Positions 28,201 to 64,000 of a stretch of DNA of 64,000 nt are shown here, in pieces (position 1 is the first letter of the stretch; each line of letters begins with the position of its first letter). A program made the translations under genes and the position numbers. The stretch is taken from positions 145,824,001 to 145,888,000 of the forward strand of contig NC_091985.1 of assembly GCF_044704955.1 (NCBI RefSeq), read 5' to 3'. The stretch comes from Pristiophorus japonicus. Its lineage: Eukaryota. The notes below the pieces were generated by a model, which had not been told where the DNA came from, ran no database searches, and was given only the letters and a program-made list of their open reading frames with translations.

Positions 28201-31200
28201 GAGAGGAAGCTCATATGGTGCATAAAAACCAGTACAGCCCTGGGACAAATGACCTGTTTCTGTGCTGTAAAATTCTCTAACTCTCGCCTGAAATAGAGTA
28301 CAGCTGGGAACAACGATCACATTGGCTGGGAATTCTCTTTCGGCCTGCTACTCGGTCCAGTTTAAACCTCAGGGAAAGAAGGATGGCCTAACTCAATGGG
28401 GGTGTCACTGCATTAGAGGCTAGAGCTGAGAAAAGTCTCACTGTTAGCAGAAGAGCCCGCCTTTAATTTTAACAAGTAGGCACATCTGCAGAATGCCAGA
28501 TGCGGGTTTTGAAAATATTGGCCGGGTATAGGAACCAAACCTAGCCAATCGTTCAACTGACTCGATTCTGCATTTCCAATGGAAATTGTTTGTCCCTAAC
28601 AGGCACCCAAACGATAATTCTTGCACTGATTTCCTGATCCCAATAATGTTCTGAAATTGGATATTCTAAGCTCTGCAGTTATCAGTATTGCATTTTATTT
28701 TATCTTATTTAGTTTGCTCCTCCCAATTATTTCTTGCTCTTGCAAATTGACAAAGCAAAAAAAAAAGGTAAATATTCTCAAATGGTCTATAATTTAATTA
28801 AACCATGACTGCCGTTTCAAACTGCATGTAGCAGATAATATGGAGCTCTCTCAACACCACAGTGGCTCGTTACATGCCCAACTTGTCATACCGACCAGAG
28901 AGGTTTTGTGCTGAGTAAACTCATCTCACTAATGACATCACTGACCTGGGCTAGGGAGGGAGAAAATGAGCTGATGGGTTTTACTCCTGCTCACTATCTA
29001 ATGACCCGTGTTGGAGTCTGGCTCTGCTCTGTGGGTCTGTATCTGTGTGTAATTAATTATTGTGCTATTGCTTCATCGTATGTAAAAACCTGCACTTTGT
29101 AGACTAGATAATTATGAGAAGGTGGTGCACGATATTTCAATCTTTGTAGACTTTAATACATGGGTAATAGTGATTTCTGTCTGACATTGCAGGTCTCTCA
29201 CGGTAAAGCAGGGAGGGTTACAGTCTCCCTCTGTCTGTCGCGGAGAGACCTATAGTAACTGAGGAACATCGCTGTGACAGCCCAGAGCTGCTGGCTGCCA
29301 TATTTTCCGGCCTCTTACAGTTTATGGACTTGATGCCGTGCGGGTAAAATAAATAAGTGAAGCAGTGCTTGGTGGCTCAGTTAGAATTCCCTACCTGATC
29401 ACTGTGGGAGCACCATCAGCACACGGACTGCAGCAATTCAAGGAGAAGGCCCACCACCACCTTGGGGCCACTCGGGATGGGCAATACATGCCGGCCTTGC
29501 CAGCGTCACCCACATCCCTAACACTTCTGGGTCTTTGGTGAAGCGGAAACAGGCGACAGTGAATCGGCAGCCTGATTCCTAAGTCAAGAATATTGGTTGC
29601 GGTGTAAAGGGGCTGCCGATTCGCTGAAGACCAGTTTCATCCCCTTGACGTCTAGGCTCGCGCATGAGGAATGTGCACCTGGGCAAATAACCAGAGGGGT
29701 AAACTATTCCAGTGTGAATCAGTGCCTTCAGAGGAGAAAATGGGGGCGGGGAGAGAGCAAACTGCATGGAAATGGTCATGGGATTGATAGATGCGTGTGG
29801 TTCTGAGCTCAGGAGGTCCTAGCCCGGTCAATCCCACAACTAGTGTATCTAGCTGATCTCAGCCAAGGAGCGGTAAGGGAATGACGCATCCCAGGAGCGA
29901 GGGGGGCAGAAATAGCCAGATTTCTCTCTCTCGATAATTGTCCAGTGATCTCTGCTGGAAAGTAGATGTCAAACGGGGATGGAATTAGTCTCCAGTATGA
30001 TCTGCCGCAGTGGTCAAATAGCTTGCAGACATGGCCGTCATGTAAATAGCGGCTGTCATGGTTGGTGGGTGTGGTAATGGAGGGTCATCTGTACCTGTGA
30101 GACTTGCCTCACCCCCAAAGCACGGTTCAGTGCTTTGAGAGGAGAGGAAAGGGAGTAAAAGCAAGTCCAGGAACCCATGGAAGCATTGTGAAAGGTACAG
30201 TCCTCGTTTCGGTCTGTATCGGGTCAGGCAACTAGTGTCCCCAGGCGCGCTCAATTGGGTAAGGTTCCCACTATTGATGACCATCTATCAGTCCCTATTT
30301 GAAGTGTGCACGTGCAGACATTAGCCTAGGAGAGGATCGGGTTTATCTGTAACATCCTCATGTTCAAATTGGCTCTCACCGTCTTAAGTTAACAGGAGCA
30401 GCGCTTGGCAAAGTGGCTGACAGCTGGCAGGGCCTGTGGGATCGTGCCTACGTCTCTGCTGCTGGGGAGGTGAGGGGGGGAAAAGTATGATTCGTCACCT
30501 TTCCATTTCCAGCACTGCCGTGGAGAACTCGGTGTTCATTTCCCAACTCCGTGGGGAATTACAGACCAATTCACGGCATAGCACGTTGAGGGAAATGAAA
30601 GCTGATGTCGGGGAGGTAGAAACCTGGGCCTTGGAGAGATGTTGGGCAATAAAGTACAACAAATAAGTAACAAAGCTTTTAAAACTAGATCCCCAAAGGA
30701 TTTCATTCAAGCCTTGGCTGGATAATACAGTTCCAAATGATCTAAACAAACTTTTCTTCCATTCCCTGCCCGCAGGTTGAGATTTAAAAATGTGAAGGGG
30801 AAATCTGCAAAGAGAAGCAGGGACTGGATTCTGGAGAAGAAAGAGCGTCGAAGGCGTCAGGGAAGGTGAGGGGATTGTGTGCCGAGGCGTTTACTGCATG
30901 TAACAAGAAAAATCTCAGCATGGTGAACATGTTATCTCCCTGCCCTTCTCTTGACCTGTTCACAGCATGCTTAACCTGTCCGATCATTAGGCCGAACCTA
31001 TGTGCGCCCTTGCAGTGTTGTTCGTGCATGGAATGAGACTTGGGTTGCTGCTGCGCTTTAAGATACGTTGTTCCGTTCCTCTCGTTCGCTCCATCCCGAG
31101 ATGAAATTGCTCCTTCGGGCATTTGTTTTTATACTGTCTGTTCATGTTGATTTATGCTCGGAAAAAAATTGAATCGTTCAGTAATTTGAATTAAGCAACT

Positions 31201-35000: not shown

Positions 35001-38000
35001 CTGTGGTTGGGGAAGTGGAGGAAACAAAAAATAAAAGTTGAAGAGTTGAGCTCCAAGCTTGCCTCTTTTTTTTTCTAGAGTAAAAACAAAATTTGTCTCC
35101 ATACTAAATTGCATTTAAATTACAACATTGCAAGTTATAAATCAAGTAGACTGGAAACGAATTGCAGACCCAAATCTTTGAATTGTAAATCTCTATTTAA
35201 CCTTAATTACCAGACCCGGAGGGATTAAAACTTGCTGCAGACAAAATGATTCCTGTGTAATCGCCCCTGCAATCCCATCAACAGGAATAATCCCTCAACT
35301 CGCATCAGTCCCCAGGCAGACTGGCTGAGCAAGGTATAAATCAAGTGCAAAATGGAGACCTTCGTACAACTTTATAAATCAAGTGCAAAATGGAGACCTT
35401 CGTACAACTTTAATTTATCTGAAACCGGGTTTTGATCAGAACGACACGGGTCACAAACAAAGCAGGAATTACCTGAGTGAGACGCAGGCACTGAATTTTC
35501 GGTGTTACCCCATAGACTGACACGAGTGCCTTTTCAATGTCCTCCACCTAAATGTGAGAATGTTAGTGAGAATTATAGCAAAGCAGAGCAGAAAAACAAG
35601 GTGTTCAAAAGGACAAATAGCAGCAGGTTCTTACCATATAATAGTTGGTCGATGGCAATATACCAGACTTCTGAAGAACACTGAATAAAGTTTAAAAGAA
35701 AAGTCAATCACTGGGAAGTAAATTCCTGAATTAAAATAAATATCCAAGTCTTGCAGTGAAACATTAGAACAGCGACTGACAGATTTACTCTGCTCATTAA
35801 TAGAAGGACTGAGCACGTGTCGACCTCTTCAATTTATGTATTCGCGTGCAGGAAGCAAGGAGACAGAACAAGGGACTGGGAAATGGGTTAAAAACCCAGA
35901 CACTTTGGTTTGGGAGGTAAGAAGAGAGCACACAAATAGAACCCTCAAAGCCTCCTGAATAAAGTTTAACAACCCTACCAACATCTGGAATCCCTGGCCA
36001 GCGACCACCCTAAGCAGAAGAAGAGCACCCAGGAGGACACTGAGCACCTTGAGTCTCGTCACTGAGAGCATGCGGAAACCAAGCGCAGACAGCGGTTCCC
36101 ACACCCACCCTTTCCTTCAACCACAGTCTGCACCACCGGTTACAGAGACTGTAATTCCCACATTGGACTGTACAGCCACCTGAGAACTCACTTAGAGTGG
36201 AAGCAAGTCTTCCTCGACTTTGAGGGACTGCCTATAATGATGATTGAGAACAAAAGCAGTGTTAGCTTGTCCTCTGTTAGTTTGCCCTCAGCTTTAGACA
36301 TATTCGAGGACTTTGGCAAAGAATCTATCCAAATTTCTGCCCAGAAGAGCCAAGTTATTCCGTTCAGGGCTGCTTCGATGAGAAGGGTTTGGGTACAGTC
36401 TGAAATCTATGAAAAGGAGGGAAGATGGATTACCTGTTCAGGTCCAGCTGGTGATACAGTTCCAGTGCTTTACTGAAATACTTGTCCTGGGTGTCCAAGG
36501 ATTCCAGCGTAGCCGCACAGGTTCCATGTTTCATCCACTCGTGCTTCCTGCACAGAAAAGAACGAGACCCAAAATGTCAGGTAGAAGTAGCAAGTGGAAA
36601 CTGCCCCTCTCATCCGTACAGGCCGACAGATGCCAGGTTTCACCGAGTTGCCGAGAGGTTTTCTTATACATCCAATGTTATCAGTTTGCTTCAAGGTCTG
36701 ACTCCATGGCTACTTCTCCTCCTTTAAGACCCCCCCTTAAACCCCACCTCTTTGACCTGGCTTCTGGTCACCCTTCCTAATATCTCCACCTTCAGTTTGG
36801 CATCCATTTTTGTCTGATTACACCTCTGTGAAGCCACTTGGGTTTTTTTTCTGATTTTGAAGTTAAAGGCCCAGTATAAATGCAAATAGACTTTGTTACC
36901 AAGCCCATAAGGTCATTCTCCACAAGTGAGCCCAGACAGAAATGGCTATTCAACTGTGTGAGGTGGCAGCAAACTGAATTCTCTCTTGACCAGAGAGCAG
37001 GGGGGCTGCAATAGTGACCAGGAGCAGGAACCCTGGCCAATTCCCTCTTTGGAGCCTGCAGCACTGAAGGCAAATAGAATGCCTGTATTAATGCCATGGC
37101 TGAGTAGTGCCAACTCAGCACAGGTGGGGGATCAACACAAGGGCCTTTCTGATCTGTACGGCTCAGTAGCACTCGAGTTGGTATAACTCCCCTCTCAGGG
37201 AGCAGGGGTACATTTGCATTAACTTCGAGCATGCCCTCTACTTACTCAGCATTGGCCCAAACTAATCTACCTCCTGCAGTCAAAACCAAGGAGGAATATT
37301 CATTCTTACTGTGGCTTTACTAGCTCTAGATTACTAAATGACAGCCCACAAGATGGGCTGAATACAGGCACAAAGGATAGCAAGGCTGTAACCAAGGAGG
37401 CCTGCGGGATGTTACAAAGAATGAGCCTTCCAGTTAGGACCAGATGAGAAGCTAGGGATTTTCTGGTGAAGCCGAGAAGGTTAGGGAAGACCAGATGAAA
37501 GAGATTTCGATAAGATAAACAGTGAGACTTTTTCCCCCCCAATGACTCGAGACAATAACGAGAGGGCACAAATTTAATATGATCTCAAGAATGTGAGGTG
37601 GTTAGAAAAAATATTCTTTCCACGGAGAGGGGTTAGAATATGGGATTCTCTGCCACAAACTGTTGTTGAACGAGTCTAGAAATTCGTTTAAATAAAAAAG
37701 GAATTAAGATAGTCGCTGGAAAACAAAGAATAGTAAACGGGTACGGGGACCAGCTGGAGTGTAGGGTCAGACTGGGTGGGTCATGGAGCAAAACTCCAGC
37801 ACAGACTCTATGGGTGGAATGACCAGTTTCTGTTCTATGCCATTGTAAGAGAAGCAATAGAGCAGATCCTTGGCTCCTGGCTGCTCCCTATGTTTCAGCA
37901 GAGATGGTCTCACGTACACTTGCTGTCGAATGGGGAGATGACACTGACTAGGCCCTTGATTCGGAGTTTGACTGTGCAAGACTTCACGTGGGTACTTGTC

Positions 38001-44000: not shown

Positions 44001-47000
44001 GCAATTTTCTCTGGCGTTCTCGCCACTGACTGTATTGACTCCTTCAGTTCCAAGGGTGCCGACTGACGGCTAGTACCTCAGTAGAACGCCCAGGCAGCTC
44101 AATAGTCGGGGGCGAACCTTGGCGGCAAGCGGCAGTAGACTATATGACTATGGGGGAAATGGCAGGCTGCTCGCACCACTTCAGGCAGGAGTCACTGGGC
44201 AGCGATCTGGAGCATGAACGGAAGCCAATGCCCCCTCCCCTAACCCAGAGGCACCGAAACCAACTAAGGGATTGAACCCAGGGCACTCATGGGCCGTATG
44301 CCTCAGCTATTCACTGAATAAAGTCACTGAGCTGAAGTTACATCCATTTTGTTTTCAATATTTTCATTTGAGGCAGTAAATACTGGGACAGGCTTGAAGT
44401 GAGTCACTGAGCTCCAATATGAGGAAGCTGATTCAATGGGTGATTCAGTGTCAAACTGCAGTTAATAATTCAGCTGATTCACACTTTTGCAACCAATTGA
44501 TTGAAATTGATCAAGAAAACTAAACAACTAAAAAAAGTGACCAAAGTGGATAGATTAAAACAAAAGCGGTTTATAGGTCTCTTTAAATTTCAGTCCAAGT
44601 ACACATCAGGAAAAGTATAAACCATCAACCCCACAACACTAACAGATGCAGACTCACCAAACACACAGTCCAAGGCCAGTGATGAGACAAACTGAGGGTG
44701 TGCCATGGGTGTTTCGTACTACGAGAGAACAGACACTTAATTAGCACTTGTTTTCAATGCTTAATGCGCCACAATTCAACTTTATCGGAGGTTTGGACCC
44801 CCCCTGAACATAATTTACACAAGTAGCAGCCTGAGTGGCTCAGTGAGTGAGAAACACCACTAGGTTAGTAATGGACTGTGCAAATCAGATGACCCCAGCT
44901 TGAATCCCTGGTCTATGTGGAGTTGGCCAAACTTAGCCCAGAGGGGATGGGGAAACCCGGGGTGCTCAACTGATCATCCTGAATGTGGGAGATGAAGAGA
45001 GGGGGAAAATTCAACTGGGGTTTCTGTTCCTGATCACTGTTCAGCAACACGTGCTGGAAGCTGAATCTGTGTGTGGACAGGATCAGGGTCAAGTGTGCGG
45101 CCCCCACAGCGGAATAGCCAGCTGCCACTTACCATCGAGGGTCATAACTCAAGATTGGATGGCTATCAGAGGGTGGCTGGCACTCAGGGAATCGTACCCC
45201 AAAACACAGAGTTCCTGTCTTCAGGAAAGGAGAAGTGAAGGAAGGGTGAGGGAAATATAAATAACTAGTTTTTTTTTAATGAAATGTTTTTGACGTCACA
45301 TAATACATTGAAATTGCAACACGGAAACAGGCCGTTCGGTACAACCAGTCTGTGCTGGTATTTATCCCTCACACAAAAAGTAATCCTAGTCCCATGTACC
45401 CGCCCTATTCCCATATCCCTTTATTTCCCCTTTTCCACCCTTCTAACCCATTCTTAAATGTTAACATGGTCTCTGCTTCAATCACTAACTCCGGTAATAC
45501 ATTCTACAGCCTCTGTGCAAAAATATTTCTCCTGCTCTCTGTCCTGTATCTCTTACGTTTAATCATATACCTACACCCGATCTTGTTTAAGTGCTCATCA
45601 GCAAAGAAGCCCAATTACTGCACTGAAACTCCTGTCACTTTTCAACTGACCAGAAACGGTTTGCAAGCCGCACTATTTATTGCTGCTGCTAGACTGATTA
45701 GTAAAGTGTTTCAAGATTTGGCTCCCAATTTTGAATTGTGAGGTGATGTTTTTTTTTTTGAAATTCGTAGCCAATCGTTCCAATTCTTTGTCAAATCACA
45801 AACGCCAGAGGTCACCTTGCACACGCCAAGGATCACTCTGCGCCAATGCTCTTAGCCAAAAGGCCTAGAGCCACTGCACCGTTCCTGGAAGTACTGCAAT
45901 ACCAGGTTCGTGCCATGGAGGTGGATGGGTCAGGTCCCCCACCCACCTCCTGTTTCCAAAAAAACAAGCATATACCTTCCTGATCCAGGGAGAACAACCT
46001 TGGGGTTATGGTGGTTACTCCCGTCAGGTCAGTTACGCATGATCTTAGCCAAAAGGCCGAGAAGCGAAATTGAAAAGTACAACAACGGTCGTACACAACG
46101 GTACCTGAGAAGTTCTAAACTCCGCACACAGCAGCTGAAGCGAAGGCACAGGCTCGTTTACAAAGTGATTCGCACAGCTCAAAATATTCACCAGCTGTGA
46201 CTCAAAGCAAAAGCAAAGAACATTAAGCTGTAGGGCTACGAACCTGAGGATGTGCTTTCAAAATACAGATTGCGAAACGACAGAAACAAGATACTTGGAG
46301 GGAAACTAATGGGCAGACAGTGGGTTTTAAATAATTCATAGAATTGTACAACAGAGGAGGCCATTCGGCCCATCATGCCTGTGCCAGCTCTTTGAAAGAG
46401 CTATCCACTCCCCCACTCTTTCCCCACAGCCCTGCAATTTTTTTCCTTTTCAAGTATTTATCCAATTCCCTTTCGAAAGTTACTATTGAATCTGCTTCCA
46501 CCACTCTTTCAGGCAGTGCGTCCCAGATCATAACTCGTGTAAAAAAAAGCCTCCTCATCTCCCCCCTGGTTCTTGTCCTATTATATTAAATCCGTGACCT
46601 CCGGTTACTGACCCTGCTGCCAGTGGAAACATTTTCTCCCCATCGACTATCAAAATCCTTCAATATTTTGAACACCTCTATTAAATTCCCCTTACCCTTC
46701 TCTGCTCTGAGGAGAACAATACCAGCTTCTTTACTCCCTCATCCCTGGCATCATTCTAGTAAATGTCTTCTGCACTCTCTCCAAGGCCTTGACATCATTC
46801 CTGAAGTGTGATGCCCAGAATTAGACATGACACTCCAGCTGTGGCCGAACTAGTGTTTTATAACGGTTTAGCATAACGTTTTTGCTTTGTACTCTATGCC
46901 TCTTTATAAGAACATACATAAGAAATAGGAGCAGGAGTAGGCCATTTGCCCCCTCAAACCTACTCCACCATTCACTGAGATCACGGCTGATTTTCTACCT

Positions 47001-50176: not shown

Positions 50177-50357
50177 CTGGTCATTTCCAGTAACATCAGG
50201 GGATGTCAGCACTGTAACTTTTGACAAAGCTTCCCCACACTCTGTGTCTCACTTACCCATCAGAAGTTTCCGGGAGAATAAAGGCAGCAAGCAGAGGCAG
50301 GAAAATCCAGGCAAACACTGGCTTCCTCCAGTATCCTGAGCCTTTCTGAAAAGCCAT
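34809..50357 (-). CDS. RNASET2: Ribonuclease T2; 9 coding exons, 768 nt, 255 aa with signal peptide
   Basis: Exons 50357-50257, 44718-44658, 43274-43219, 39732-39675, 38415-38351, 36547-36434, 35680-35635, 35547-35473, 35000-34809. All introns GT-AG with consistent phases. CAS I WTVHGLWP and CAS II WKHEWMKHGTC intact. Confidence 0.95.
35335..35410. repeat. Perfect 38-bp tandem duplication
   Basis: tataaatcaagtgcaaaatggagaccttcgtacaactt x2. Confidence 0.9.
35473..35547 (-). CDS. RNASET2: RNASET2 coding exon 8 (VEDIEKALVSVYGVTPKIQCLRLTQ)
   Basis: tttag acceptor, GTAATT donor. Confidence 0.95.
35635..35680 (-). CDS. RNASET2: RNASET2 coding exon 7 (SVLQKSGILPSTNYYM)
   Basis: ttcag acceptor, GTAAGA donor. 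Confidence 0.93.
35935..36244 (+). mobile_element. RTE-clade LINE 3' end
   Basis: Degenerate C-terminal Cys/His motif (CTTGYRDCNSHIGLYSHLRTH) and gagggactgcctataatgatga tail. Confidence 0.75.
36434..36547 (-). CDS. RNASET2: RNASET2 coding exon 6 (CAS II: WKHEWMKHGTCAATLESLDTQDKYFSKALELYHQLDLNS)
   Basis: gtgcag acceptor, GTAATC donor. Confidence 0.97.
37400..37850 (+). mobile_element. Degenerate CR1 3' end
   Basis: TRGH-like segment (acgagagggcac) and CR1 tail. Confidence 0.6.
38351..38415 (-). CDS. RNASET2: RNASET2 coding exon 5 (DILSELEHWWPDVIHPNTTMLW)
   Basis: ctgcag acceptor, GTTTGT donor. Confidence 0.93.
39071..39325 (-). mobile_element. CR1 3' end
   Basis: aacataagaaataggagcaggagtaggc terminus. 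Confidence 0.85.
39675..39732 (-). CDS. RNASET2: RNASET2 coding exon 4 (PKHNMMCNRSWHFDVRNVK)
   Basis: aatag acceptor, GTGGGT donor. Confidence 0.94.
40635..41525 (+). mobile_element. CR1-group (Crack/L2-like) LINE 3' portion, degenerate
   Basis: MFVDDCTVF...QQDLDNIQ and IYKAQVRSAMEYSPLAW. Tail shared with short elements at ~5170-5335, 29385-29520 and 50930-51190. Clade assignment uncertain. Confidence 0.8.
42105..43160 (+). mobile_element. SacSINE/DeuSINE-like SINE split by a MITE
   Basis: Head at 42105-42193 and body at 42843-43160, co-linear with 18300-18708. Confidence 0.7.
42194..42842. mobile_element. Non-autonomous DNA transposon (PIF/Harbinger-like MITE)
   Basis: TIRs ggggtcaaaattcggtt / aaccgaatatcgacccc (15/17 match); imperfect 3-bp TSD tag/gag. 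Confidence 0.7.
43219..43274 (-). CDS. RNASET2: RNASET2 coding exon 3 (LWNHTCKVLPNYWTVHGLW, CAS I)
   Basis: tcgcag acceptor, GTAAGC donor. Confidence 0.96.
44658..44718 (-). CDS. RNASET2: RNASET2 coding exon 2 (TKHPWHTLSLSHHWPWTVCL)
   Basis: tcgtag acceptor, GTGAGT donor; conserved HWP-x-TVC. Confidence 0.94.
44828..45240 (+). mobile_element. Old unnamed tRNA-headed SINE; related copies at ~4750, 17370 and 29800
   Basis: A-box-like gtggctcagtgag, B-box-like ttgaatccctgg, and shared body motifs between copies. Confidence 0.5.
45310..45580 (-). mobile_element. CR1 3' end
   Basis: acacggaaacaggccgttcgg terminus. Confidence 0.7.
45749..46067 (-). mobile_element. U2/U1 snRNA-derived chimeric retroposon (SINEU-like) with poly(A) tail
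   Basis: On -: U2 nt 2-29, U1-like 5' segment, Sm-like site, U2 SLIII and SLIV, a second U2 SLI, a hairpin tail, then A11. Confidence 0.85.
46338..46905 (-). mobile_element. CR1 3' portion
   Basis: [25 protein letters not shown]. Confidence 0.85.
46908..49960 (-). mobile_element. Long degenerate CR1 LINE (APE through RT to the 3' end)
   Basis: ORF fragments 47335-47784, 48195-48587 ([15 protein letters not shown]) and 48804-49070. Internal 23-bp duplication near 47888-47932. Confidence 0.92.
50139..50175. repeat. (GA)n microsatellite
   Basis: Visible in sequence. Confidence 0.9.
50257..50357 (-). CDS. RNASET2: RNASET2 coding exon 1, signal peptide (MAFQKGSGYWRKPVFAWIFLPLLAAFILPETSDG)
   Basis: Hydrophobic leader; phase-2 GTAAGT donor fits exon 2; acceptor at 50374-50376 implies an upstream UTR exon. 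Confidence 0.88.
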
Positions 50358-55278: not shown

Positions 55279-58200
55279 TGTTATATATGTGGACTTGTAT
55301 TTACTCTGTACAGCCACCATAGGGCTCAATCCCCGGAGTCCCAAGGGATCCCATAATCCCTTGGGAGCCCAGGTATTTAAGAAGGCGTCACAGGTTGGAG
55401 AGGCACTTTGGAGACCTGTAATAAAAGATTAAGGTCACACTTTACTTTGAGCTCACAGTGTTCAGTCTGACTCTTTCTCCATACACAACAACTGGCGACG
55501 AGATACAGATAGCGAACCCAAAGATGCAGAGACCAGTGGGCATCCTAGAGACATTTTCGGAGGGAGATGATTGGGAAACTTTTGTGGAGCGACTCAATCA
55601 ATACTTTGTGGCCAACGAGCTAGATGGGGAAGAGAGCGCTGCCAAATGAAGGGCGATTCTCCTCACCGTCTGTGGGGCACAAACGTATGGCCTCATGAAG
55701 AATCTGCTCACTCCAGCGAAACCCATGGAAAAATCGTATGACGATTTGTGCATACTGGTCCGAGAGCATTTGAACCCGAAGGAAAGCGTTCTGATGGTGA
55801 GGTACCGGTTCTACACCTACAAAAGGTCTGAAGGCCAGGAAATGGTGAGTTATGTTGCCGAGCTGAGACGCCGTGCAGGATATTGTGAATTTGAAGGACA
55901 TTTGGAGCACATGCTCAGAGACTTTTTCATACTTGGCATTGGCCACAAAACCATACTTCACAAGCTTTTGACTGCAGAGACCCCAACCTTGAGTAAGGCC
56001 ACAACAATAGCCCAGGCGTTTATTGCAACCAGTGACAATACGAAGCAAATCTCTCAGCGCACAAGTGCTGCTACAAATGCTGTGAACAAAGTGATGTTGT
56101 TTTCGAATTGTAACGTACAGAGCAGGTCACACATACCTGCAGCTACAAGTCCGCAGATGTCTGAGTCCACCATCAAGGTTGATGAATGCAAGGCCATTAA
56201 CACCTTTGTTGGTACTGCGGGGATGATCATCGTTTCCATTCATGCCGATTCAAGGGATACGTTTGCAAGGGCTGTGGAACAGTGGGACATCGCCAACGAG
56301 TGTGCAGGCGAGCTGCGAAGCCTGTTAAACCTGCAAACCACCATGTTGCAGAGACGGTCAGATCCACGGAGGACCACTACGAACCAGAGCCTCAGATCGA
56401 GGAGGCAGAGGTACATGGGGTGCACACATTCACCACGAATTGTCCCCCGATAATGCTGAATGTTGAACTAAATGGACTCCCAGTGTCAATGGAGCTGGAC
56501 ACGGGTGCGAGCCACTTCATCATGGGCAAAAAGACTTTCAAAAGGTTGTGGTGCAACAAGGCCTCAAGGCCAGTTTTAATTCCAGTTCGCATGAGACTAT
56601 GAACGTACACTAAAGAACTGATTCCTGTAATCGGCAGTGTACCTTAAAGGTCTCCTACGATGGAGCTGTGCATAAGCTACCACTCTGGGTGATACTGGGC
56701 GATGGTCCCACGCTGCTCGGCAGGAGCTGGCTGGGAAAGATACGCTGGAACTGGGACGATGTCCGAGCGCTATCGCCTGCTGACGACATTTCGTGTGCCC
56801 AGGTCTTAAACAAATTTCCTTCGCTGTTCGAACCAGGCATCAGGAAATTCCAAGGAGCAAAAGCGCAGATCCACCTAATTCTGGGGACGTGACCCATCCA
56901 TCACAAGGCGAGAGCATGATGAGAGAAAGGGTAGAGATTGCGCTAGACCGGCTGCAACGAGAGGGTTTCATTTCACTGATCGAGTTCAGCGAGTGGACCA
57001 GTCCCATTGTCCCAGTCCTTAAGGGAGACGGCACCGTCAGAATCTGTGGCGACTACAAAGTAACTGTCAATCGTTTCTCCCTGCAGGACCAATACCCACT
57101 ACCAAAAGCCGATGACCTCTTTGCAATGCTGGCGGGAGGAAAGACATTCACGAAGTTGGAGCTGACCTTAGCCTACATGATGCAGGAACTGGAGGAATCA
57201 TCGAAGGCCTTCACCTGCATCAACACGCACAAAGGTCTTTTTGTTTATAACAGATGCCCGTTTGGAATCCGATCAGCGGCGGCGATATTCCAGAGAAACA
57301 TGGAAAGTTTACTGAAGTCGGACCCGCACACCGTGGTCTTCCAGGAGGACATCTTGGTCACAGGTTGGAGCACAGTCGAGCACCTGCAGAATCTAGAGGA
57401 GGTTCTTCGTCGACTCAACCGCGTGGGGCTCAGGTTAAAACGCTCGAAGTGTGTTTTCCTGGCACCTGAAGTGGAGTTCCTGGGAAGGAGGATTGCAGCG
57501 GACGGCATCAGGCCCACCAACGCGAAGACGGAGGCAATCGAGAACGCACCGAGGCCACAGAACGTGATGAAGCTACGGTCGATTCTGGGACTCTTGAACT
57601 ACTTTGGTAACTTCTTACCGTGTCTCAGCACACTGCTAGAACCACTACATGTCTTACTATGAAAAGGGGGCGAATGGGTTTGAGGCAAAAGCCAAGAAAA
57701 TGCCTTTTGTAAAAGCGAGAAAATTGTTATGCTCAAATTGCTTGTGTTGTATGATCCATGTAAGCGTTTGGTACTAGCATGTGATGCGTCGTCATAGTTT
57801 ATGTTCTTGGCGCTCCAAACCGTGGTCCAGGGTACACGTCAACTATGCAGACCCGTTCTTGGGTAAAATGTTCCTTGTGCTTGTAGACGCGTACTCCAAG
57901 TGGATTGAATGTGAGCTAATGTCGGCTAGCACGTCCGCTGCCACCACTGAAAGCCTGCGGGCCATGTTTGCCACACATGATTTAGCCGATGTCCTGGTGA
58001 GCGACAACAGGCCATGTTTTACCAGTGCTGAGTTCAAAGAATTCATGACCCGTAACGGGATCAAACATGTCACATCTGCCCCGTTTAAACCAGCGTCCAA
58101 TGGTCAGGCAGAGAGAGCAGTGCAAACCATCAAGCAAGGCTTGAAGAGGGTAACTGAAGGCTCACTGCAGACTCGCCTATCCAGAGTCCTGCTTAGCTAC

Positions 58201-59027
58201 CGCACGAGACCACACTCACTCACTGGGATCCCACCTGCTGAACTGCTCATGAAAAGAGCACTTAAGACAAGGCTCTCGTTAGTTCACCCCGATCTACATG
58301 AACAGGGAGAGAGCAAGCAGCTTCAACAAAGTGCATACCATAATAGCGCCAATGTGTCACGCGAGATTGAAGTCAATGATCCTGTATTTGTATTAAATTA
58401 TGGACAAGGTCCCAAGTGGCTTCCCGGCACTGTCGTGGCCAAAGAGGGGAGCAGGGTGTTTCAGGTCAAACTTTCAAATGGACTCATTCACCAGAAACAC
58501 TTGGAGCAAATCACACTCAGATTCACAGACTACCCTGAGCAACCCACCTTGGACCCTACCTTTTTTGATCCCCCAACATAGGCACCATTGGCAACCGGCA
58601 CCATGGTTGACCACGAAGCAGAACCCATCATCCATAGCAGCCCTGCAGGGCCCAACACACCAGGCAGCCCAGCAAGGCCAGCTGCATAGCAGCCCAGCGA
58701 GGGCCCAATGATTCAACAACACCAGCTTTCACACCGAGATGATCAACCAGGGCCAGAAGGGCCCCAGATCGACTCACATTGTAAATAGTTACACTATTGA
58801 CTTTGGGAGGAATGTTGTTATATATGTGGACTTGTATTTACTCTGTACAGCCACCAGAGGGCTCATTCCCCAGAGTTCCAATGGATTCCATAATCCCTTG
58901 GGAGCCCAGGTATTTAAGGCAGCTTCACAGGTTGGAGAGGCACACTGGAGACCTGCAATAAAAGACTAAGGTCACATTTTACTTTGAGCACACAGTGTTC
59001 AGTCTGACTCTTTCTCCAGACACAACA
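55279..59027 (+). mobile_element. Gypsy (Mag-like) LTR retrotransposon, defective
   Basis: 212-bp LTRs (TG...CA) at 55279-55490 and 58816-59027; 5-bp TSD gttac; PBS tggcgacgag; PPT gggaggaa; gag, protease LDTGAS, RT (FQED), integrase core. Confidence 0.96.
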
Positions 59028-62400: not shown

Positions 62401-62606
62401 CATTCTGGTAAACATACTCCCTCCAAGGTCAGTGTGACTGTGTGGCTGTGTGGGAGGCCTCACATTATGTGGGAGGGGCCAAGCTTCCAGAGGGTGATTA
62501 GTGGGTGGAGCTCAGTTTGACACTAATCAGCAGGAGGCTCTTAGACTATCACTAGTTTGTGCTGTAGTCAGGTGAGGTTCAAAGAGATTGCTAGTTAGTT
62601 CTGTGA

Positions 62607-64000
62607 TAGTGCAGTACTCCCTCTCTCTCGCCCACCCGCCAGTGCAACGCTCCCTCAGTACCGCCCCTCCGACAGTGCAGCGCTCCCTCAGTACTGCCCC
62701 TCCGACAGTGCAGCGCTCCCTCGGTACTGCCCCTCTGACAGTGCAGCACTCCCTCAGTACTGCCCCTCCGACAGTGCAGCACTCCCTCAGTACTGCCCCT
62801 CCGACAGTGCAGCGCTCCCTCAGTACCGCCCCTCCGACAGTGCAGCACTCCCTCAGTACTGCCCCTCCGACAGTGCAGCGCTCCTTCAGTACTGCCCCTC
62901 TGACAGTGCAACGCTCCCTCAGTACTGCCCCTCTGACAGTGCAACGCTCCCTCAGTACTGCCCCTATACAATGCAATACTCCCTCAGTACTGCCCCTCCA
63001 ACAGTGCAACGCTCCCTCAGTACTGCCCCTATACAATGCAACACTCCCTCAGTACTGCCCCTCCAACAGTGCAACGCTCCCTCAGTACTGCCCCTATACA
63101 ATGCAATACTCCCTCAGTACTGCCCCTCTGACAGTGCAACGCTCCTTCAGTACTGCCCCTATACAATGCAATACTCCCTCAGTACTGCCCCTGACAGTGC
63201 AACGCTCCCTCAGTACTGCCCCTGACAGTGCAACGCTCCCTCAGTACTGCCCCTATACAATGTAATACTCCCTCAGTACTGCCCCGCCCCTCTGACAGTG
63301 CAGCACTCCCTCAGTACTGCCCCTCCGACAGTGCAACGCTCCCTCAGTACTGTCCCTATACAATGCAATACTCCCTCAGTACTGCCCCTCCAACAGTGCA
63401 GCACTCCCTCAGTACTGCACCTCTGACAGTGCAACGCTCCCTCAGTACTGCACCTCTGACAGTGCAGCACTCCCTCAGTACTGCACCTATGTGCAGCACT
63501 CCCTCAGTACTGCCCCTCTGACAGTGCAACGCTCCCTCAGTACTGCCCCTATACAATGCAATACTCCCTCAGTACTGCCCCTCCAACAGTACAACGCTCC
63601 CTCAGTACTGCCCCTATACAATGCAATACTCCCTCAGTACTGCCCCGCCCCTCTGACAGTGCAGCACTCCCTCAGTACTGCCCCTCCGACAGTGCAGCAC
63701 TCCCTCAGTACTGCCCCTATACAATGCAATACTCCCTCAGTACTGCCCCTCCAACAGTGCAACGCTCCCTCAGTACTGCCCCTATACAATGCAATACTCC
63801 CTCAGTACTGCCCCTCTGACAGTGCGGCACTCCCTCAGTACTGCCCCTATACAATGCAATACTCCCTCAGTACTGCCCCTCCGACAGTGCAGCACTCCCT
63901 CAGTACTGCCCCTCTGACAGTGCAGCACTCCCTCAGTACTGCCCCTCTGACAGTGCAACGCTCCCTCAGTACTCCCCCTATACAATGCAATACTCCCTCA
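62607..64000. repeat. Satellite, ~33-bp unit (ctccctcagtactgcccctccgacagtgcagca), about 40 units, running off the window end
   Basis: Visible tandem units with tatacaatgcaata variants. Confidence 0.96.

Follow-up and report, generated by a model that had tools for sequence, protein, structure and literature searches.

A young U2/U1 snRNA-derived retroposon family in the genome of Pristiophorus japonicus and its link to the U2 insertion site of Keno

The window, a stretch of 64,000 nucleotides from the Pristiophorus japonicus genome, carries on its minus strand (45749..46067) one dispersed member of a young, non-autonomous family of retroposons derived from U2 and U1 snRNA. The family is real: its units of 319-350 bp are non-coding and multicopy, have their internal junctions in common, and are linked to the site at which the LINE Keno enters U2 genes. 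The window copy is likely inactive, and we consider it probable that the family is copied by a Keno-type LINE and transcribed only from those copies that sit at position +1 of U2 genes.

Structure of the element in the window

Every module named in the original prediction was found on the minus strand, in the order given there. The copy belongs to subfamily A1 and differs from the column majority of its own type at 8 of 299 columns. The Rfam U2 profile matches it at 45869-46068 (72.1 bits, E 1.4e-13). As had been proposed, its head (46040..46067) corresponds to nt 2-29 of U2, with stem-loop I, and it is identical to the genomic U2 at 28 of 28 positions; it would act as a homology arm for 5' joining into U2 genes. 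The head is followed by a linker (46034..46039), at which U2 nt 30-45, the branch-point arm with the Keno cut site, have been lost, and by a segment derived from U1 nt 3-58 (45979..46033), in which the 5' end is altered, the SL1 stem retained and its loop changed. Since the Rfam U1 profile gave no match in the window at E<=1, the U1 origin of this segment rests on pairwise alignment. Aligned to the genome's own U1 nt 3-58, 46033-45979 scored 51.5 against a shuffle mean of 23.2, and 0 of 1000 dinucleotide shuffles scored as high. Sister copies gave scores of 65-68, and the U1 segment of subfamily C, taken alone, was not significant (161 of 1000 shuffles as high). The U1 middle segment proposed earlier was thus upheld by alignment, with its start moved from 46035 to 46033. 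On the opposite strand, the altered 5' end of the U1 segment gives a donor-like CAG|GTCAGT (46024-46032, +), so antisense intronic copies could provide cryptic 5' splice sites.

The next module is a degenerate Sm-like U-run (45956..45966), which is also a Pol III stop. An Sm-like site had been predicted here; the U-run is present, but the preceding A is absent in the window copy. The AU5G Sm site is retained in subfamilies B and C and lost in A1. The U-run is followed by a hairpin derived from U2 SLIII (45917..45950), which has a 13-bp stem and a stability of -27.5 kcal/mol compared with -13.4 for U2 SLIII (P 0.0003 against random edits) and is present in duplicate in many family members. The domain derived from U2 SLIV (45872..45916) lies within the Rfam U2 match, and sister copies are 94% identical over U2 nt 153-186. 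A second, re-paired U2 stem-loop I (45848..45871) was inherited from an older family, as described below, and the tail (45760..45847) is homologous to the tail of that family and not to Keno. The expected A11 tract lies at 45759-45749. No TSD was found for the window copy, in agreement with the prediction, though 41 of 58 solo relatives have one.

The folding of the whole element gave z = -3.6. When compared with random mutants carrying an equal number of edits, SLIII variants were more stable (-21 to -27 kcal/mol against null means near -8, P 0.0003), and the U1 SL1 variants had retained the stem and changed the loop (P 0.001-0.04). Selection on structure, suggested earlier, is therefore supported for the source lineages. 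The alternative suggested with it, a retrocopy of a novel functional chimeric snRNA, finds no support, since the 5' end and SL1 loop of U1 and the branch arm of U2 have all been altered, in ways that differ by subfamily; neither a splice-site nor a branch-site pairing arm is intact in the element.

Copy number, ends and age of the family

Copies were counted in the 5.92 Gb genome as exact pattern matches, which are lower bounds, and all reversed-pattern controls gave 0. By this measure there are at least 4,744 copies of the family 3' half, at least 2,292 of the window-type (A) head junction and at least 132 of the sister head B, together with at least 522 of the tail of the older family. For the ends, 70 loci on C1, the first places listed among the head-junction matches apart from three that had already been covered, were sampled and gave 73 copies, of which 15 were left out of the TSD test owing to a tandem neighbour or an A-run on the 5' side. 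A strict TSD was present in 41 of the remaining 58 solo copies, compared with 0, 0, 0, 1 and 0 of 58 in five mismatched pairings. The 5' ends peak at U2 nt 1 (17 of 73, with 7 more at nt 2), and 5' truncations occur. Extra 5' bases are few and non-recurring: no common 5' extension was seen, and 45 of 60 TSD-bearing copies have none at all. Up to three or four copies of differing types may be stacked in tandem at one site with the same TSD around them. Within types, divergence from the column majority has a median of 0.15-1.5%, in samples that are biased towards exact matches.

With thousands of copies that have common ends, A-tails and TSDs, the prediction of an independent snRNA-derived SINE family was borne out, and the copy-number check proposed with it showed that the element is not a one-off. 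The family has the features of the SINEU class of crocodilian retroposons: a U1/U2-derived head, a short multicopy unit, poly(A), TSD or target truncation, 5' truncation, and a target preference in common with a Tx1-clade LINE (the U2 array site and a relaxed motif elsewhere). The hot spots that could be classified were U2, the older family and a Gypsy-like pol, and did not follow the Mariner-N4 preference of Tx1-Mar. An origin independent of the crocodilian SINEU is likely, judging from the structure and from the differences in partner and target.

Origin of the family

A member of the older family is made up of an entire U2, a second fragment from the 5' end of U2 and a tail, and full-length copies are 78-94% identical to U2. 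The 3' half and tail of the young family align to the older one. In the least diverged old copies (L106) the second fragment reaches U2 nt 38 and the tail begins there, and the tail likely originated as an insert at the Keno site. The young family arose from the older one by replacement of U2 nt ~30-95 with U1 nt 3-58 and by reshaping of SLIII. Across types, mosaics combine different heads, loops, Sm regions, numbers of SLIII and tails.

U2 nt 30-45 serve in branch recognition and are also the site at which Keno cuts. Copies of the old family in which this site is retained are found interrupted at nt 38 (the first 13 of the 83 A-tract/U2 junctions in the genome are all such), and 1 of 24 unselected old copies spanning nt 38 is interrupted there. 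An older Keno head with an intact site is likewise interrupted at nt 38 (L201). Because these site-retaining sequences are hit, escape from cutting by the partner is a plausible driver of the loss of U2 nt 30-45; avoidance of interference with splicing may be an alternative. In another locus (L173), a U1-like fragment lies between two tandem Keno-lineage copies and is possibly a captured U1 piece like that behind the A heads. The U1 genes (L031-L042) often form inverted pairs 3-7 kb apart and have two types of upstream flank.

The partner LINE and its insertion sites

The original prediction held neither the partner LINE nor the copies in U2 genes and the parent family. In the genome, 83 places match a pattern of an A-tract with U2 nt 38-60 behind it. 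In the tandem U2 arrays these junctions are the 3' ends of a 5.7-kb LINE, of which ORF1 encodes RNA-binding domains and a zinc knuckle and ORF2 encodes APE, RT and zf-RVT domains (Pfam). Its protein homologues include one named transposon TX1 (34% identical), and 14 of 14 array copies with the mutated Keno head retain two long stop-free frames. The 3' junction of the array LINE is the Keno target, 37 nt into U2, as given in the available text of two reports (PMC6136364; PMC4640811). The partner is best read as a Keno-type Tx1 LINE and not as an L1.

This LINE lineage is also dispersed, with 360 exact 3' end matches; most of the dispersed copies sampled have 76-89% identity with the array LINE, and mixed SINE/LINE tandems hold LINE copies that are 94-98% identical (L164, L166, L167). 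The median TSD is 16 for the SINE and for the LINE, and the two have two off-target sites in common (2 mixed pairs). At 83 distinct, TSD-bearing dispersed SINE sites, T, G, any base, A, G and a pyrimidine are favoured from -6 to -1, where positions -1 and +1 are constrained by nick placement. These sites match U2 nt 32-36 at 1.86 positions on average compared with 1.27 for the background (P 1e-4, n=83), and the LINE's own dispersed sites gave P 0.08 (n=11). A pyrimidine stands at -1 in 6 of 11 LINE sites and 75 of 83 SINE sites. The largest SINE hot spot (9 loci, Gypsy-like pol) was seen in 0 of 31 LINE flanks. Targeting of the L1 type (TT|AAAA) was rejected, TT|A being present at 3 of 83 dispersed sites.

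The proposed check of the tail against local L1/Tx1 3' ends revealed no similarity to Keno, and a Keno-derived tail was rejected, with 49 of 200 shuffles scoring as high for the last 600 bp of the LINE and 7 of 200 for the whole LINE. Since the SINE tail is unrelated to the LINE, recognition by the LINE is likely to occur through the A-tract. An enrichment of A|TCT after the tail (5 of 56, P 0.011) is weak and was not relied on. At one locus (L150, C19:70743031) a Keno head is joined to the 3' body of a SINE, and the 3' junction of this chimera falls inside an old-family copy.

Copies in the U2 arrays

Five stretches of type-1 array contain 269 units with the U2 upstream flank, namely 237 U2, 17 subfamily B and 15 Keno-type, and both parasites together hold ~12% of the type-1 U2 units read (32/269). 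Two further B copies, one located at the edge of a contig and the other in a U2 gene of type 2, bring the total at the U2 Keno site to 19. Every array B copy starts seamlessly at U2 +1, is without U2 nt 30-37, and ends in an A-tract of up to 110 nt followed by U2 nt 38-191. Over the 230-bp upstream flank, 15 of 17 B units are identical to 57 of 57 intact units, and the remaining two differ at 19 and 83 positions. The array Keno is likewise fused at U2 +1, through a U2-derived head of its own that has a mutated cut site. In one Keno unit the sequence is that of the genomic U2 up to nt 44 and that of the Keno head beyond it, a switch that joining guided by homology would be expected to leave.

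Step by step, the array B haplotypes can be derived from the haplotype that is common among dispersed copies. Both type-1 B haplotypes have dispersed twins (L264, with A75, and L265, identical over 339 nt), and 28 of 30 dispersed B copies have haplotypes that lack an identical full-length array copy. The presence of two haplotypes among 18 type-1 B copies may reflect a few insertions spread by recombination, or redundant contigs. Among intact U2 starts, 253 of 274 were located, all in the two array types, and 21 were not seen.

A1 is the largest subfamily, and some of its types (0.15-0.45%) match B (0.30%) in young age. Promoter-linked A1 gave 0 of 9 matches with a pattern that covers just the two known U2 flank ends, and it was also absent among the U2-site junctions read, out of 83 places. 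The sole A1 copy in a true U2 gene (L152) has its 3' junction in U2 and a foreign 5' flank with no promoter. Turnover in a homogenising array, or alleles absent from one assembly, would explain the missing A1 and B sources. None of the A-tract/U2 junctions read showed true U2 nt 38-191 carried to a dispersed site by 3' transduction; at the single junction outside the main arrays (L201), U2 spacer DNA comes along.

Several other properties of the arrays were recorded. On C19, the segment at 69.62-69.73 Mb (L134-L143, L099) has 16 of 17 units occupied (11 Keno-type, 5 SINE), and several gaps of ~12 kb suggest tandem LINEs. The second type of U2 gene, in units of 14-21 kb, is located at C9:111.0-111.3 and 113.4-113.8 Mb (L097-L103, L151); a Keno 3' remnant and a headless U2 follow each of these, and some carry old-family inserts. 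The array unit in C1003, C1832, C1868 and C4309 is ~765 bp long with a variable (GTT)n/(GAT)n spacer.

Transcription and proposed life cycle

The features of classical Pol III SINEs are lacking: there is no B box, the one A-box-like match is located in the tail, and the element contains internal T4, T7 and T4 runs. The T-runs and the missing B box argue against Pol III. A PSE-like motif and an octamer are common to the U1 and U5 genes, and neither is clear in either U2 flank; near -60, the type-1 flank has a PSE score of 1.2 bits. For the source locus with a PSE that was proposed originally, the B copies behind the U2 flank are candidates, but the flank has no clear PSE. Since U2 is essential, the U2 flanks located here most likely include working promoters. 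Capture of this promoter, as judged from the anatomy, appears well supported for subfamily B and would extend to A1 by homology. A perfect octamer is present ~57 nt past the start of the Keno 5' region in L095 (C1003 ~23310) and in the other array LINEs.

These features may be arranged in the following cycle. The Keno endonuclease would nick a U2 gene at nt 37/38, and reverse transcription would be primed in the A-tract of the element. The U2 head of the cDNA would then pair with the first 28 nt of the gene, so that U2 nt 1-37 are exchanged for the element, which then has its start at +1. From there, the U2 upstream promoter would make an RNA of the element, its A-tract and U2 nt 38-191, ended at the U2 3' box. 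Most new insertions would take place at relaxed Keno-like sites elsewhere and be promoterless dead ends, while source copies would turn over along with the array. With U2 nt 30-45 lost, the element would likely be safe from cleavage by its partner. A broader reading, which is offered only tentatively, is that the snRNA heads are promoter-capture arms, by which a promoterless SINE and Keno might re-enter U2 +1 by homology and compete for units. The SINE RNA, with a U2 Sm site and 3' stem-loops obtained by read-through, might then ride snRNP export and re-import to the LINE proteins and back to the arrays. If true, this would describe a SINE life cycle without an internal promoter and offer a general explanation for SINEU.

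It seems unlikely that, with the same family and Tx1 machinery, the main subfamilies use an unrecognised internal promoter or host read-through, the array copies being a by-product of Keno. Such a reading would agree with the absence of A1 behind the U2 promoter, with U2 flanks that show no clear PSE, and with the flank-derived 5' extensions that Kojima describes on SINEU-2 in the available text (PMC4494074). However, no common 5' extensions were observed here (no extra base in 45 of the 60 TSD-bearing copies), the 5' ends stop at U2 +1, T-runs are present and the B box is absent, the newest haplotypes are located in the arrays and have dispersed twins, and all 253 of 274 intact U2 starts that could be located are in the two array types. 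Another possibility, that source copies rely on the U2 promoter while a sister Tx1 family of relaxed specificity, instead of the array Keno, inserted most of the dispersed copies, is quite improbable. It draws on the 76-89% identity of most sampled copies among the 360 exact LINE 3' ends, on the difference between SINE and LINE site profiles at -1, and on the Gypsy hot spot without sampled LINE insertion. The array lineage examined has intact ORFs, though, and the LINE copies in mixed SINE/LINE tandems reach 94-98% identity (L164, L166, L167), while off-target sites are held in common (2 mixed pairs) and TSD length is equal.

That the family stems from a chimeric snRNA gene useful to the host, namely a variant of U2 with passively spreading retrocopies, is very improbable. 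The kept or strengthened stems, the folding z of -3.6, the AU5G site of subfamilies B and C and the position of array copies, which have the U2 flank before them and the 3' end of U2 behind, would suit a gene of this kind, but the two splice-recognition arms and the SL1 loop of U1 have been altered, and differently so among subfamilies, the A-tracts are long and variable (up to 110 nt), the mosaic types are many and short-lived, and every array copy destroys one U2 gene. The window copy without TSD could also be taken for a one-off template-switch pseudogene; with 2,292 exact head-junction matches against 0 in the reversed control, copy number has already refuted that idea.

Relation to known elements

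In the available text of Kojima 2015 (PMC4494074), SINEU is reported from crocodilians alone and Tx1-Mar is inferred as its partner; its transcription is called an open question, given that the promoters of snRNAs are situated upstream, with a dependence on flanks suggested. The accessible part of a 2018 paper (PMC5786205) still treats the transcription mechanism as unsettled, and that of a 2017 review (PMC5381603) places SINEU under crocodilians only. As far as described there (PMC4494074), SINEU-1/2/3 resemble the present family in being short U1/U2-derived retroposons with poly(A), TSDs, U1/U2 mosaic heads and internal oligo-T, in having tandem copies that sandwich a TSD, and in lacking a LINE-shared tail, their Tx1-clade partner being inferred from targets. 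By the same account, the present family differs in its host, in an architecture built on a full U2 with a second SLI and tail, in a partner of the U2-targeting Keno type instead of Tx1-Mar, in insertion into U2 genes instead of Mariner-N4, and in the +1-fused copies seen in intact U2 units. Keno (Tx1 clade, APE) and Utopia (RLE) have the same U2 3' junction, 37 nt past the start, in the available text of PMC6136364 and PMC4640811; they are autonomous LINEs, whereas the present element encodes nothing, and the Keno found here differs from Keno as described there in bearing a U2-derived head with a mutated cut site.

R2 has non-autonomous derivatives in 28S rDNA. Like R2 and its derivatives, the present family would depend for transcription and turnover on a multicopy RNA-gene array. 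Co-transcription of R2 with rDNA is cited in the available part of PMC4494074. In contrast to release from a Pol I co-transcript, a Pol II snRNA promoter would here be captured at +1, and unlike R2, the present SINE has thousands of off-target copies. Chimeras of snRNA and LINE such as U6-L1, as presented in the accessible text of PMC4494074, are also retrocopies with snRNA sequence at the 5' end, but they arise by independent template switches, whereas here fixed junctions are common to thousands of copies. In the literature covered, which excluded subscription papers, Repbase and Dfam, neither a U2/U1 SINE outside crocodilians nor a Keno-dependent SINE was found, and the main text of one shark genome preprint, as far as accessible, mentions neither SINE nor Tx1.

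The genome of P. japonicus thus holds a second, still-young lineage of snRNA-derived SINEs. As it also contains putative sources of the family, the partner LINE in intact form and three generations of the family, the question of SINEU transcription becomes directly testable. Promoter capture at U2 +1, if true, would answer how promoterless SINEUs are transcribed. Seamless, homology-guided 5' joining by an APE-type LINE would also bear on RNA-templated targeted insertion.

Host gene and other features of the window

The element lies in sense orientation within RNASET2, as had been proposed, and more precisely in intron 1, as a predicted exon 1 and the positions of exons 2 and 3, which are in phase, indicate. 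The predicted coding exon 1 (50257..50357, -) would encode a signal peptide and end in a phase-2 donor. Exon 2 (44658..44718, -) starts ~1 kb downstream of the element, and the match to human RNase T2 (E 7.9e-12) comes from an exon at 36436-36546. Elsewhere in the window, an Rfam SCARNA20 match is present at 29192-29322 (+; 50.1 bits against a gathering score of 44), and a low-complexity tandem repeat at 62500-64000 yields long stop-free frames. Decayed Gypsy-like gag/pol frames are located at 55600-58600 (+), and a Gypsy-like pol resembling this region is the main off-target hot spot of the SINE.
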